Shown here in pieces: positions 6,001 to 12,000 of a DNA stretch of 15,515 nucleotides. Numbering within the stretch: the first letter of the stretch is position 1; every line of letters begins with the position of its first letter. Position numbers: made by a program. This DNA is from a virus: the UHGV virus genome UHGV-0099607; one strand, 5' to 3'.

Positions 6001-9000
6001 AATCGTTTTACCTGCACCGTCCACCACGATCCCCTCCCGGGTCAGCGTCACAGACTGCCCCTGATCGTCATAGACAGCCACCTCACCCGTCTGCAGCCCT
6101 TTCAGGCGGTAGCGCCGGTCCGACACCGTAACAACCACCGCATGAGAACGGTCGCTATAGGTGTCGTAGGACAACCCGATAGCATCCGCCAGCTCTGCTG
6201 GCGTGGTCACCGGTGCGTCACTTTTTCGTTGAAATAATCCCGAAAAGAACACTATTTACCTCCGCCGACAGACGACTGTGTACGGTCGAGATATCGCGCC
6301 ACCAGCCACGACCAGAACAGACACAACGCCCCGGCAACAACAAACCCCGCCGGGGGATAAATCAGCCAGGCACCATACGCCAGCAAAAGCGCCCCCAGCA
6401 CGCCCACCAGAGGCGCGAGAATCAGCATGATCATAATTACCTCAGTTAAAGCGAGCGGATCCCATAGGACTCAATGTGGTCAGACAGCGTGTCTTCTTTC
6501 TCGTACAGCATGGCTCTGCCAACCGCCATAATCAGCGCAACTGCACCATCGATTTTGTTTTCCGCCTGCTCTTTGACGGGCTTCACCACATCATCGTTAC
6601 CCGGAATGGTTTTGCCGACCACGTTGCCGATACACCAGGTCATGATGGGATTGCCATCATGATGAAAGCGCCCCGATTCAATTGCCGCTTCCAGCTCTTT
6701 CATCGGGTCGGACATGTTGGTGTAGTTCTGAATGATAGTGATGGGGTTCAGGTCTTCATCAGCAAGGTCATGTGACAACCCGGTCGCCCCGAAGGGGTCG
6801 ATGGGTGACTCACTGACCGGGCTGATTTTGTTCGCCGCTTTGGCCTCCTCGAGGATGTAGCGATAATCCACCTCCGCACCATCGGTAACGGTCAGAACGC
6901 CCATTTCCACCCATTTCTGAAAGCGTTCGGCTGTCCGTCGATCTTCATTTTTCTCGACGCTGTACACCGTGTCATACGGTACCCAGAAACGCGGGGCCAC
7001 ACTGTAGTAATGCGTTTTACCGTCAATCTCGCGGGTATAAAGTCGCGCCATGCTGTTCATATCCAGTTTACGCGCCAGGTCAAAGGCCAGAATGCACGGC
7101 TGCCCCTCGAATTGCTCAAGAGTCAGTGATTTATCCTCGCAGCTCTGCCAGCTCACCAGGTTGAAATACGCCGAACGCGCCGACACCCAGATATTGAGGT
7201 GTTTTGTTTTAAAGACGTTTGCCAGACGGGCGTTATTTTTCGCACGCTGTTGCTGACTTAACAAAAACTCACGGTAAACCGACACTCCGATATTCGGGTT
7301 GGCTTTTTCCAGCACCTGTGGGTTGGTCCAGTCGTCACCTTCGTCAACGGTATAGATGATCCCGAACAGTTCATCGTTGGGTACCGAACCGTTGAGCATC
7401 TCGATAACTTCCCGCCGTTTGTCGTAGCACGGCCCCTCAATGTTGTACCCGGCAGTAGTAATGGCCCACATCAGTGGCTGACGTCGCGCCCCCATCCCGG
7501 TAAGCATTGTGGTATAAAGCGCATCGGTGGCATGCTCGTGATATTCATCAACCACGGCACAGTGGGGTGATGAACCATCACCTGGGTTGCCGATCAGCGG
7601 TTCAAACCGCGCGCCATCCTCCGGACGGTTCATGTTTGAGGCGTTAACCTCAATCCCGAACGCTTCCGTCAGCATGGGTGTGCGTTTACACATCAGTCGT
7701 GCCGGGCGAAAGACTTCCCACGCCTGTTTCTCTGTCGTGGCACCGGAATACACTTCCGCGCCAAACTCGTTATCACAGGCAAAACAATACAGGGCAACAC
7801 CGGCAGAGATTGCTGATTTGCCGTTCTTACGGGGGATTTCGGTGTACACCTCCCGGAAGCGGCGCAACCGGGTGCCTTTATTGACCCAGCCAAACGCACA
7901 GCAGATCACAAATAGCTGCCACGGCTCCAGCGTGATGGGCATCCGTTTGAATGCCCACTCCCCCTTGGTGTGCGGCAACAGCTGAATAAATTTCGCGGCC
8001 CGTTCAGCCAGGTCCTTGTCGAAGCGGTAACGAAACGACTTACTTTTTTCCGCCATCAGGTCATCAAGATGGCGCTGGCAGGCCTGAATCACAAACTGGC
8101 AGGCAACAATCTTTCCGCGCACGACATCCCGGGCATACTGATTTGCAGCATTTACGTTGGGGTAAGATTTCCGGCTCATGATTCGATGATTTTCAGAAAC
8201 GGGTTAGTGGCTTTCTTCTTCCCCGCCAGGCCAATCAGACGCTGGCGGCTGCTGGGGTCGAGTCCGAGCATTGCCCCCGTACTGCTCATCTCGGACTCCT
8301 GTTCTTTTTTGGCAGTCAGCTCCGGATTTTTGACCATACCGCCCATTGCACCGGTGATGGTGTTGCCCTGTCTGGCAATATTTTTCACGGCACGTCGCCA
8401 GAACTCGTAGGCCACGCACCACCGCTCAAGCACCGCAAGGTCAGTCACGCACAGCAGGCCCTGACCGCAGAGTTCTTTAGTTGTCAGTTGCCACATGATC
8501 GTAGCGAGAGGGAGATCTTCTTCAGCGAACCACTCCGGTGGCTCAACACCTTTGATGGGCGTAAAAACAGGTTCATCTTTGTTCAGGGCTCGCTTGCCGG
8601 GATTTCCGGCCAGCGCCTTGCGCGCCGTTGGCTTGGGGCGACGCCCGGAACGCCCCGTCGTTCCAGTCATATGCGGCACTCCTGGTTAAATTTCATTTTT
8701 CGCGGGTATAAAAAAACGATGGGGCGGGCAGTCCGGAAGACGTCAGGTCACAGGGATTTGACCCGCCCCTCCCCTCAGACAGTTGAGAATTATTATCACT
8801 TCAGCCGTTCACGGGCCGTCTTCGCCTTATGACACGGCCAGCACAGACTCTGCAGATTACAGTCGGCATCAGTGCCGCCATGCGCTTTAGGGATGATGTG
8901 GTCAACGGCTTTCGCCTCACGCACCACACCGGCACGCAGACATAACTGACACAGGCCTTTGTCACGCTTCAGGACACGCGCGCGGATACTGTCCCACTTC

Positions 9001-12000
9001 GAACCGTAGCCGCGCTGATGACGGGATTGTCTAGGTTTGTATTGCTTCCAGCCTTCGCTTTTGTGGCTTTCGCAGTAGCCTGACGGGTCAGTCGTGGTAT
9101 GGCGGCAACCGCGAACACGGCAGGCTTTTGGGGTTCGTGGTGGCATGCTGGCTCCAATAAAAAGCCCCGCGACGCGAGGCTTAGACAGAAAAAACACCGG
9201 ATAAGATCTGGTCATTCTTCCTTTTTAATAATGACTTCTCGAGGGCGCAATTGTTGGATAGCACGACAAATACAATATGGAATAACTGCCCATGCTACTC
9301 CCATTGCTGCACCTGCAGCCTGTTGTGGAGCACTCTGAGCACCGAAAACCCCGAGGATTCCTTCAATAAATCCAATAGCACTACACAAAAGACTGATGAC
9401 CCAGAGAATTTTCATAAACCCAAACTCCTTTTAAATAAACACATTACTAGGATAATTCTCATAAAATGTTAGTAAAGTATTTTCAGGAAAATAGCGTATC
9501 ACTGCCTATTTTTGACACTGATGCTGGGATAATTATTCCGATCGCTGGAGTTGCTCATGATGATACAGAGCGAGAATCAGGTCATAAGACCCTTGCCTGT
9601 CTTTGTAACCAGTTTTATCAACCAATTCAGCTTTACTGATTCCGGGTAAATCAAGAATCAGATTCGCAACTTCAATTGCCCTTTGGTACAACTTACCGCC
9701 CTTTTTCTCCCCATGCAGTGGTTTTACATTCTTCAGGTAACCGCTATCCGCCAAGGCGAGAAATGTTGCCCTTGGGCATATCTTCTTTCTTGACGATTCG
9801 CTTTCTGTAACCTCTGCGACAGCTGCATCCCATGCATCACGAGGAGTCATTGAGCTATCAGCCACCAAATGATAAGCGATTAAAGCAACGTGAGCGTATT
9901 GAGACATAATGCATCCATATACAAAAATCTAATGATAAGACTTTTCTAATATGAACACTGTGATCTCACATATTCTTGCAGGCCATTCAATTGGTTAGTT
10001 ATGGTTTCGATGCGCTCTCTGAGAACGAAATAATCCCGTTGAGCGGTGTCAGTAAGTCTGGGGCTGGAAGCATCATCCACGCCGGAGGCGGCGGTGGTTT
10101 TATGCTTGTCCGGACAGACTGCTTTGACGTGCAGCCACTTACGACCAGCAGAAACATCAGCACGAAGACTTTCGATAGTCGCGTTAGCATCAGCAAGCTC
10201 CTTTGTGTATCTGGCGTCGAGTTCTGCTACATCATGTTGACGCTTCTGCATGTCAGCGATTGTGGATGTGGCCTTATCGCGCTGCTCTTTGTAGGTAATG
10301 GCGTTATCACGGTAATGATTAACAGCCCATGACATGCAGACGATGATGCAGATGAGCAGAGCGGAGATAATCGCGGTTAATCTGCTCATACCTCAATCTC
10401 TCTGACCGTTCCGCCTGCTTCTTTGAATTTTGCAATCAGGCTGTCAGCCTTATGCTCGAACTGGCCATAACCAGCGCCCGGCAGTGAAGCCCAGATATTG
10501 CTGCAACGGTCGATAGCCTGACGGATATCACCGCGATCAATCATCGGTAAAGCGCCACGCTCCTTAATCTGCTGCAGTGCAACAGCGTCCTGGTTTTTCG
10601 GAGAGAAGTCTTTCAGGCCAAGCTGCTTGCGGTAGGCATCCCACCAACGGGAAAGAAGCTGGTAACGTCCGGCTGCTGTTGATTTGAGTTTGGGGTTTAG
10701 CGTGACAAGTTTGCGAGGGTGATCGGAGTAATCAGTGAATAGCTCTCCGCCTACAATGACGTCATAACCATGATTTCTGGTTTTCTGACGTCCGTTATCA
10801 GTTCCCTCTGACCACGCCAGCATATCGAGGAACGCCTTACGTTGATTATTGATTTCCACCATCTTCTACTCCGGCTTTTTTAGCAGCGAAGCGTTTGATA
10901 AGCGAACCAATCGAGTCAGTACCGATGTAGCCGATGAACACGCTCGTTATATAAGCGAGATTGCTACTTAGTCCGGCGAAGTCGAGAAGGTCACGAATGA
11001 ACCAGGCGATAATGGCGCACATCGTTGCGTCGATTACTGTTTTTGTAAACGCACCGCCATTATATCTGCCGCGAAGGTACGCCATTGCAAACGCAAGGAT
11101 TGCCCCGATGCCTTGTTCCTTTGCCGCGAGAATGGCGGCTAACAGGTCATGTTTTTCTGGCATCTTCATGTCTTACCCCCAATAAGGGGATTTGCTCTAT
11201 TTAATTAGGAATAAGGTCGATTACTGATAGAACAAATCCAGGCTACTGTGTTTAGTAATCAGATTTGTTCGTGACCGATATGCACGGGCAAAACGGCAGG
11301 AGGTTGTTAGCGCAGCCTCCTGCCACCCGCTTTCACGAAGATCATGTGTAGAAGGCAGCAGCGTAACTATCACTGATGAGTTCAGGATAGCCAGTGGCTA
11401 CGGCTCAGTTATGGTGCTGGTTAACGGACTTGAACCGCTACCCATTCGCTTACAAGGCGACTGCTCTACCATTGGAGCTAAACCAGCATATTTGGCGGGA
11501 CAGCGTGGACTCGAACCACGATAAGAAGGTTAACAGCCTTCCGTAATGACCTTTATACGACTGACCCAAATAAAAAATCCCGAAACCGTTATGCAGGCTC
11601 TAACTATTACCTGCGAACCGTTTCGGGATTGCATTTTACAGACCTCTCAGCCTGCGATGGTTGGAGTTCCAGACGATACGTCGAAGTGACCAACTAGGCG
11701 GAATCGGTAGTAAGCGCCGCCTCTTTTTATCTCACTACCACAACGAGCGAATTAACCCATCGTTGGGTCAAATTTACCCAACTTTATTCAAAAAGTCAAT
11801 ATCATGCCGTTAATATGTTGCCATCCGTGGCAATCATGCTGCTAACGTGTGACCGCATTCAAAATGTTGTCTGCGATTGACTCTTCTTTGTGGCATTGCA
11901 CCACCAGAGCGTCATACAGCGGCTTAACAGTGCGTGACCAGGTGGGTTGGGTAAGATTTGGGATTAGCATCGTCACAGCGCGATATGCGGCGCTTGCTGG

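Follow-up and report, generated by a model that had tools for sequence, protein, structure and literature searches.

A gtrABV-carrying relative of SfV and e14 that is very probably a recently crippled prophage

Relatives of the element and the lost head-tail block

The closest described relatives of the element considered here are SfV and SfI (with SfII and SfIV), which are complete, inducible phages of 37-38 kb, and e14 of E. coli K-12, which sits at icd with pin, mcrA and lit. Phage satellites resemble it more superficially, in having some packaging functions and a packaging site without the full set of virion genes. Phage-inducible chromosomal islands (PICIs) span about 8-18 kb, have their own primase or replicase and origin, and have no lysis, tail or baseplate genes; they are de-repressed by a helper, upon which they excise, replicate and become packaged. 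Capsid-forming PICIs (cf-PICIs) carry, besides the small and large terminase subunits (TerS and TerL) and an HNH endonuclease, a major capsid, portal, protease and head-tail connectors of their own, tail genes being absent. P4-like satellites have an alpha primase-helicase, the sid/psu/delta set and the cos of their helper. A preliminary description of the virus genome stretch UHGV-0099607 (15,515 nt; the window, i.e. the whole stretch analysed) saw packaging and lysis genes kept without a capsid and tentatively proposed a satellite-like or domesticated element. Our analysis indicates that the window is very probably part of a recently crippled defective (cryptic) prophage of the SfV/e14 family, shaped by two illegitimate-recombination deletions.

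The window, 15.5 kb of an element that continues past it, is oriented in reverse of the published phage maps. In a whole-window similarity search, window 1-6158 had its counterpart in SfV 20439-14279 (97.3% identity, from gtrA to baseplate gene V), window 6153-10389 matched the terminase-cos-HNH-Rz region of SfI (96%), and lambda matched piecewise across 10015-15515 (Rz, R, S, Q, the C-terminal part of cI, N, sieB and ral). The genes follow each other as gtrA-gtrB-gtrV (+), then tail-fibre assembly, short fibre, gp48-like, baseplate J and gp46-like (-), a chimeric open reading frame (ORF), a ymfR-like gene, TerL, TerS, cos, HNH and two small accessory genes, and finally Rz/Rz1, R, S, tRNA-Thr, tRNA-Asn, tR'/pR', a Q-like gene (-), cI (+), N (+), sieB (-) and ral (+). 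This is a mosaic prophage, in which a packaging, tail and gtr arm of SfV/SfI/e14 type is joined to an early and lysis arm of lambda type. It is collinear with SfV and SfI, with 96-97% identity over gtrAB(V), fibre, baseplate, TerL, TerS, cos and HNH, and it matches SfI in its cos sequence and in a tRNA-Asn/Thr pair. Yet, it differs from these phages by lacking a 12-kb head-tail block, the replication/nin block and a normal Q, and by having an immunity region of the 720R6/phi458 type and lambda-type Q, S and R.

The head-tail block is interrupted at a first junction, between window positions 6155 and 6156 (GAGAACGGTCGCTATAGGTGTCGTAGG, 6144-6170). Its flanks map to SfI 14542 and 2565 (by another mapping, 14539 and 2568), and the SfI map between the former positions, about 11,976 bp (2566-14541), is absent. 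Intact relatives, taken from draft NCBI assemblies, delimit the loss from both sides. Four prophages with an identical GtrV (L012, L016, L017 and L018) have full-length gpV, hub, DNA-circulation, tape-measure, tube and sheath genes; they are 99.85-99.90% identical to window 1-6155 and the homology stops precisely at 6155. Six prophages with an identical TerL match the window from 6156 to 9146-9166, and in them the portal, S78 protease, HK97-type capsid, connector, sheath and tube genes follow. The right arm is 97-98% identical to these intact prophages. As the preliminary description had noted, no capsid or tube gene is present; nor does the window have portal, protease, connector, sheath or tape-measure genes, and a single deletion of 11.98 kb accounts for the absence of all these head and tail-shaft genes. 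The genes removed are those for portal, protease, major capsid, connector, sheath, tube, tape-measure, DNA circulation and hub. The deletion starts at portal codon 33 and ends within baseplate gene V. It leaves a chimeric portal'-'gpV ORF (5815-6252, minus strand), in which portal residues 1-32 are linked through one junction codon to residues 71-182 of baseplate gpV, without any Pfam match. Because no shared sequence or microhomology is detectable at the 6155/6156 join, the junction is best read as a deletion by illegitimate recombination and not as a modular exchange.

A very similar loss is found in e14. It shows 96.7-97.1% nucleotide identity to the element over TerL-ymfR-portal' and from baseplate J to the tail fibre (L010 9171-11923 against window 5132-7582), it has a large deletion from the 5' part of portal into the baseplate cluster that took all head and tail-shaft genes, and it has a second chimeric ORF on its early-right side, ymfN (replication'-'terminase). 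Nevertheless, the two events are independent, e14 joining SfI 2876 to 15565 and the window element SfI 2565 to 14542. Furthermore, Q, the lysis genes, HNH, TerS and the 5' part of TerL are lost in e14 and kept here, and e14 carries pin/mcrA/lit at icd where the window element carries gtr. This comparison is based on the RefSeq annotation and on our own alignment, since a literature search on e14 gave nothing usable. An object of similar kind and size is known, by its published description, from S. flexneri 5b 8401, where the SHI-O island has, at the locus for serotype conversion, gtrA-gtrB-gtrV and an SfV remnant of about 15 kb (PMC1550401). The window is not a copy of it: the GtrV of 8401 (ABF02532.1) falls in the same 90% cluster but differs in sequence.

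The cro'-'Q chimera and late control

The second junction lies at 12372/12373 (CCATCACATCAGTAGCTCCCTGTGTGC, 12360-12386) and has a 2-bp 'TA' microhomology. Lambda homology (97%) extends from the tRNA side to window 12373, which is Q codon 32, and from 12372, which is cro codon 28, the sequence follows the immunity region of phage vB_EcoP-720R6 (99.6%), with an overlap of 2 bp. The deletion, which reaches from cro codon 29 to Q codon 31, removes the remainder of cro together with nutR, cII, P, ren, the nin genes and O with its origin. What it leaves behind pR is an in-frame cro'-'Q chimera (11842-12456, minus strand) that joins Cro residues 1-28 to lambda Q residues 32-207 and matches Pfam Antiterm and, partially, HTH_3. 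Hence, the first 31 residues of Q are replaced by 28 residues of Cro, half of its helix-turn-helix, and the whole DNA-binding body and the zinc ribbon of Q are retained. The chimera sits directly behind pR/OR and adjoins an intact cI. The window shows the traits of defective lambdoid prophages: collinear, high-identity family homology on either side of the gaps, loss of essential functions and deletion ends inside genes (portal'-'gpV and cro'-'Q).

The same cro'-OR segment, 100% identical and beside a LexA-family (cI-type) repressor, occurs in a defective prophage with P22-like tail genes in E. coli O19:H7 730V1 (NZ_CP061764.1, about 6865-7160). There, the 5' end of cro abuts a remnant of an Rz1/Rz pseudogene, so that this prophage, too, has a deletion that begins immediately right of pR, independent of the one in the window.

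The consequences of the second deletion for transcription depend on the late control region, which is of lambda type (11570-11799, minus strand) and comprises pR', the Q-binding region, the 6S leader and tR'. It is 96% identical to lambda 44489-44799, with 2 substitutions between the pR' hexamers, in the Q-binding region. The hexamers of pR' (TTGACT-17-TAAATT, 11799-11771, minus strand) are identical to those of lambda. The terminator tR' (about 11572-11630, minus strand) is a hairpin of -29.9 kcal/mol (z = -6.6) with a U run behind it; having a long loop, it was missed by a simple terminator scan and recovered by folding. The late control described earlier as conserved is thus conserved in its promoter and terminator, but the N-terminus of the Q that should act on them has been exchanged for Cro 1-28.

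In lambda Q, residues 1-44 form a torus that enters the RNA-exit channel, built of helix 1 (1-11), a loop (12-31) and helix 2 (32-42) (PMC9388147). Lambda Q without residues 1-38 still binds the Q-binding element (QBE) and RNA polymerase but has lost antitermination, and the V6A substitution is antitermination-defective while still binding the QBE (PMC9388147). No full-length Q with torus residues 1-44 is found in the window, helix 1 and the loop being replaced. Since this is the segment that lambda Q requires, the chimera is predicted not to antiterminate, and tR', being intact, should end transcription from pR'. The genes beyond this terminator (S, R, Rz, HNH, TerS, TerL and baseplate) would therefore probably be largely silent. 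N could not rescue rightward read-through either, because nutR is deleted.

One might speculate that the element was domesticated as an SOS-triggered lysis switch, in which cro'-'Q is under the control of cI and pR, and RecA-mediated cleavage of cI fires S-R-Rz, e.g. for altruistic lysis or release of cell contents. Such a switch would make use of an intact cI, with its helix-turn-helix and S24 peptidase, standing beside pR and the chimera, of an in-frame fusion that spares the DNA-binding body and zinc ribbon of Q, and of an intact lysis cassette. But this is at odds with the missing residues 1-31 of Q, given that both the 1-38 deletion and V6A abolish antitermination in lambda (PMC9388147). 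It is also at odds with the distribution of the element, known from a few identical contigs and from none of 5,426 complete E. coli genomes, which gives no sign of spread or maintenance. Finally, other defective prophages with the same immunity region are also deleted from cro, which looks like a recurrent pattern of decay and not like a purpose-built circuit. We consider the switch quite unlikely. Some activity of the chimera, whether it turns on the late operon upon cI cleavage or acts as a decoy at the QBE, is very unlikely too; it could result in SOS-gated lysis, or in cutting of the chromosomal cos near gtrV by terminase and HNH. If it were true, that cos might now and then allow a co-infecting phage of the SfV family to mobilise the cassette for serotype conversion.

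The packaging module

The packaging genes are as well preserved as the preliminary description had claimed, all three being full length relative to SfI and SfV with their Pfam domains present. TerL (6446-8179, minus strand; 577 aa) is intact, 567/577 identical to SfI and matches TerL_ATPase and TerL_nuclease. TerS (8176-8670, minus strand; 164 aa), also intact, belongs to the Terminase_4 / P27 family (Pfam Terminase_4) and is 162/164 identical to SfV. The HNH endonuclease, of the HK97 packaging type (8796-9146, minus strand; 116 aa; Pfam HNH), is full length and 110/116 identical to SfI. Between HNH and TerS lies the cos region (8721-8769, minus strand). The 10-nt cohesive-end sequence of SfI, TGCCCGCCCC, was determined experimentally (PMC3636060), and it is matched exactly at 8721-8730 on the minus strand, where it takes up one arm of an 8-nt perfect inverted repeat (GGGGCGGG/CCCGCCCC, 8721-8728 / 8762-8769). 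The repeat earlier proposed as a cos candidate, presumably this one, thus contains a known cohesive end. With HNH beside cos, upstream of a P27-type TerS and a TerL, and with catalytic domains that appear intact, the module looks by its sequence like an HK97-type one; HNH endonucleases adjoining cos and terminase genes are an arrangement that has been described (PMC3592412).

Relative to the six intact relatives that share its TerL, the window has three specific non-synonymous changes in HNH (G->R at 9032, T->A at 8909 and S->C at 8861) and two synonymous ones. TerS has one window-specific change and TerL none. The changes in HNH may represent early relaxed constraint or a higher variability of HNH; they are too few to interpret.

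Such a module might be taken to mean that the element is a helper-dependent satellite, keeping cos, TerS, TerL and HNH for its packaging in the capsids of a co-resident or superinfecting phage of the SfV/HK97 type and thereby spreading gtrV. A cos identical to the SfI cohesive end and three intact packaging genes would suit this role, and the first deletion even brings gtrABV within 8.7 kb of cos. However, cos packaging of the lambda/HK97 type needs a concatemer with two cos sites. No replication gene is found in the 15.5-kb window, the ancestral O/P/ori block being deleted. Because the second deletion took O with ori and P, the element appears unable to replicate, and without an origin or initiator there would be no concatemer with two cos sites. 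Its packaging genes also stand behind tR', with an N-terminally replaced Q as the sole Q. Moreover, a helper with a compatible portal of the SfV/HK97 type would supply its own near-identical terminase and cos, and retaining them would give no advantage.

The comparison with described satellites leads to the same result. Unlike PICIs, the element has no replication module and carries S, R, Rz/Rz1 and five baseplate and fibre genes. Unlike cf-PICIs, it has tail-tip genes, and the capsid, portal, protease and connector genes are precisely the set deleted here. No P4-like alpha primase-helicase and no sid, psu or delta gene was found among the window ORFs or the Pfam hits listed for the contigs, and the window has no gene for redirecting or forming capsids. 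Lysis genes and an arbitrary, non-functional subset of the baseplate are foreign to satellites, the deletions end inside genes, and the element is rare and clonal, known from a few near-identical contigs. The satellite is thus highly improbable, and the satellite-like or domesticated reading of the preliminary description does not fit an element with these traits and a truncated, fused Q.

Recency, rarity and retained cargo

If the element is a defective prophage, the good state of its genes must be explained. All retained reading frames, aligned to their SfI, SfV and lambda counterparts, are full length with proper start and stop and have no internal stops or frameshifts; the scan for such lesions that had been proposed earlier is thus negative. 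The preliminary description took intact frames and tight coupling as weak evidence for continued selection, with a decaying prophage that had not yet accumulated lesions as its other possibility. The divergence from intact relatives favours the latter. Up to the first junction these relatives are 99.85-99.9% identical to the window, and only 3 positions in the 6155 nt of the left arm are specific to the window relative to all five close intact relatives, i.e. about 5 x 10^-4 per site. These changes are in gtrB (non-synonymous), in an intergenic region and in gp48 (non-synonymous). At such a divergence we estimate about 1.3 substitutions in the 2.6 kb of TerS, TerL and HNH, and fewer than about 0.1 nonsense changes without selection. 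Full-length frames are therefore the neutral expectation and, the divergence being so small, they do not indicate selection. As for the coupling, it was inherited from the phage ancestor and is uninformative on selection at present.

Codon comparisons say little more. TerL differs from intact relatives by 17-35 synonymous and 0 non-synonymous codons, but the latter count is so by construction, since these relatives were retrieved by exact TerL identity; it shows only that the protein is unchanged from that of working phages. The identical protein is listed in 691 protein-index blocks, and the six contexts shown are all complete prophages in which TerL is followed by portal, protease and HK97-type capsid. 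Ratios of non-synonymous to synonymous rates (dN/dS) across carriers of the deletions have no power, because the copies are 100% identical to the window (two metagenome contigs) or differ at 2 of 14,507 sites (a third copy). We suggest that strong purifying selection kept these genes intact in a working phage ancestor and that the deletions are very recent; the genes for packaging, lysis and baseplate would then be passengers awaiting decay.

The deleted form is scarce. Each fusion protein is recorded on only 3 contigs (ENA, Logan assemblies), which makes three to four near-identical metagenome contigs for the pair, and neither has an NCBI record. Neither junction was found in 5,426 complete E. 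coli genomes, and an intact progenitor with this gtrV was not found among complete E. coli genomes either. The exact GtrV sequence is present in NCBI, as a glucosyl transferase of E. coli/Enterobacteriaceae on 47 contigs. Common as the prophage is, this variant of it is rare and clonal and does not represent a maintained lineage. With every recovered copy coming from metagenome or Logan assemblies, one could suspect that both deletions are chimeric joins made by short-read or metagenome assemblers. Yet, both junctions recur in assemblies of at least 3 samples that were produced independently and by different assemblers, one contig being recorded in four samples, and there is little or no repeat sequence at the junctions to mislead an assembler. 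An artefact is therefore close to negligible as an explanation.

Some observations weigh against a defective prophage. The cos site and the complete HNH-TerS-TerL set survive together, the retained genes have no point lesion at all, and both deletions are in frame, although this has a chance of about 1/9 and is not significant. The predicted inactivity of the chimera derives from published lambda Q mutants, and tR' may allow low-level read-through independent of Q. Furthermore, the int-proximal arm (int/xis/attL) lies outside the window and outside every recovered contig. Exact-protein look-ups with both fusion proteins, aimed at the int/attL arm and a complete host chromosome, returned only short ENA/Logan contigs ending at exo/bet/gam.

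At the other end, beyond gtrA, a contig (L003/L011) has a host-type flank with CbtA/CbeA/RadC/antirestriction genes resembling those of the CP4-6 island, which adjoins thrW in K-12. The flanks are of E. coli/Shigella type; no thrW gene or att core was identified in the sequence examined, and the int side is not among the recovered contigs. We propose that a cryptic prophage occupies thrW, the attachment site of this family, in a host of the E. coli/Shigella type, and that the window is its right two-thirds.

At this attR-proximal end, gtrABV (50-2582) is an O-antigen conversion cassette and likely a selected cargo. It consists of gtrA (50-412, plus strand; 120/120 identical to SfV GtrA), gtrB (409-1332, plus strand; 305/307 identical to SfV) and a gtrV-type glucosyltransferase gene (1329-2582, plus strand; 407/417 identical to SfV GtrV). 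The gene caller left gtrA uncalled on the metagenome contig (L003 15341-15703 / L011 8722-9084); this is an annotation gap and no lesion, the 120-codon ORF being intact and identical to SfV GtrA. The five distal baseplate and fibre genes that follow (2704-5815), identified by SfV/SfI alignment and Pfam, are each full length and 95-99% identical to SfV/SfI. They encode, all on the minus strand, tail-fibre assembly (2704-3111/3207), the short tail fibre (3116-3766), a Mu gp48-like wedge (3770-4354), baseplate J (4345-5403) and a Mu gp46-like protein (5390-5815). Two other sequences (L014 and L015) share an identical GtrV protein and 99.2% DNA identity with window 1-3541 (gtrABV, fibre assembly and the 3' part of the fibre gene), and in them the cassette is joined to an entirely different baseplate/tail module (Phage_Wedge1, Sheath_initiator, Dit-like). 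Since the shared sequence ends within the fibre gene (window 3541), with another tail module beyond, the gtr-fibre cassette appears to move between tail types.

The lysis cassette is complete, as are the tail-tip and fibre genes, in agreement with the preliminary description. It comprises, on the minus strand, the holin gene S with a Met-Lys-Met dual start (10846-11169; 106/107 identical to lambda S; Pfam Phage_holin_3_1), the endolysin gene R (10386-10862; 155/158 identical to lambda R), Rz (9946-10389; 142/147 identical to SfI; Pfam Phage_lysis) and, embedded in Rz and read from the sequence, Rz1 with the lipobox VSGC (9999-10196). The cassette is itself mosaic: S and R are lambda alleles, Rz is an SfI allele (142/147, against 100/154 to lambda), and SfI homology ends at 10389, the R/Rz boundary. 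The genes for tRNA-Thr(UGU) and tRNA-Asn(GUU) (11412-11567, minus strand; 96.5% identical to SfI 35728-35955) lie between tR' and S as in SfI, a position where lambda has no tRNAs. Two accessory ORFs are located between Rz and HNH (9212-9907), one for a 67-aa hydrophobic protein without Pfam match (9212-9415, minus strand) and one for a DUF6979 protein (9533-9907, minus strand; 123/124 identical to SfI gp63). A YmfR-like membrane protein of 60 aa (6252-6434, minus strand) is 59/60 identical to SfI gp03.

In the early region, the OR/pR-pRM interval (12457-12531) and cI (12532-13227, plus strand) are 99.6% identical to the immunity region of vB_EcoP-720R6; cI encodes an intact LexA-family repressor of 231 aa (Pfam HTH_3 and Peptidase_S24). 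They are followed by N (13804-14127, plus strand; 105/107 identical), sieB (14128-14682, minus strand; 184/184 identical to lambda SieB) and ral (14877-15056, plus strand; 59/59 identical to SfI). Plausibly, gtrABV, cI and sieB are under selection or kept by the host, for O-antigen glucosylation, immunity and exclusion, respectively.

The significance of these results is modest and lies mainly in annotation: the appropriate label is a defective prophage of the SfV/e14 family with gtrABV and two chimeric pseudogenes, and not a satellite. The locus also cautions that, where there are close intact relatives, the intactness of all ORFs says little about selection. Nevertheless, it provides a clean and datable case of early prophage decay, in which large deletions came first and point lesions have not yet followed. 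Taken with e14 and the cro'-Rz1 remnant of 730V1, the element indicates that prophages of this group have lost the head-tail block and the region immediately right of pR repeatedly and independently, with cI and cargo being kept.

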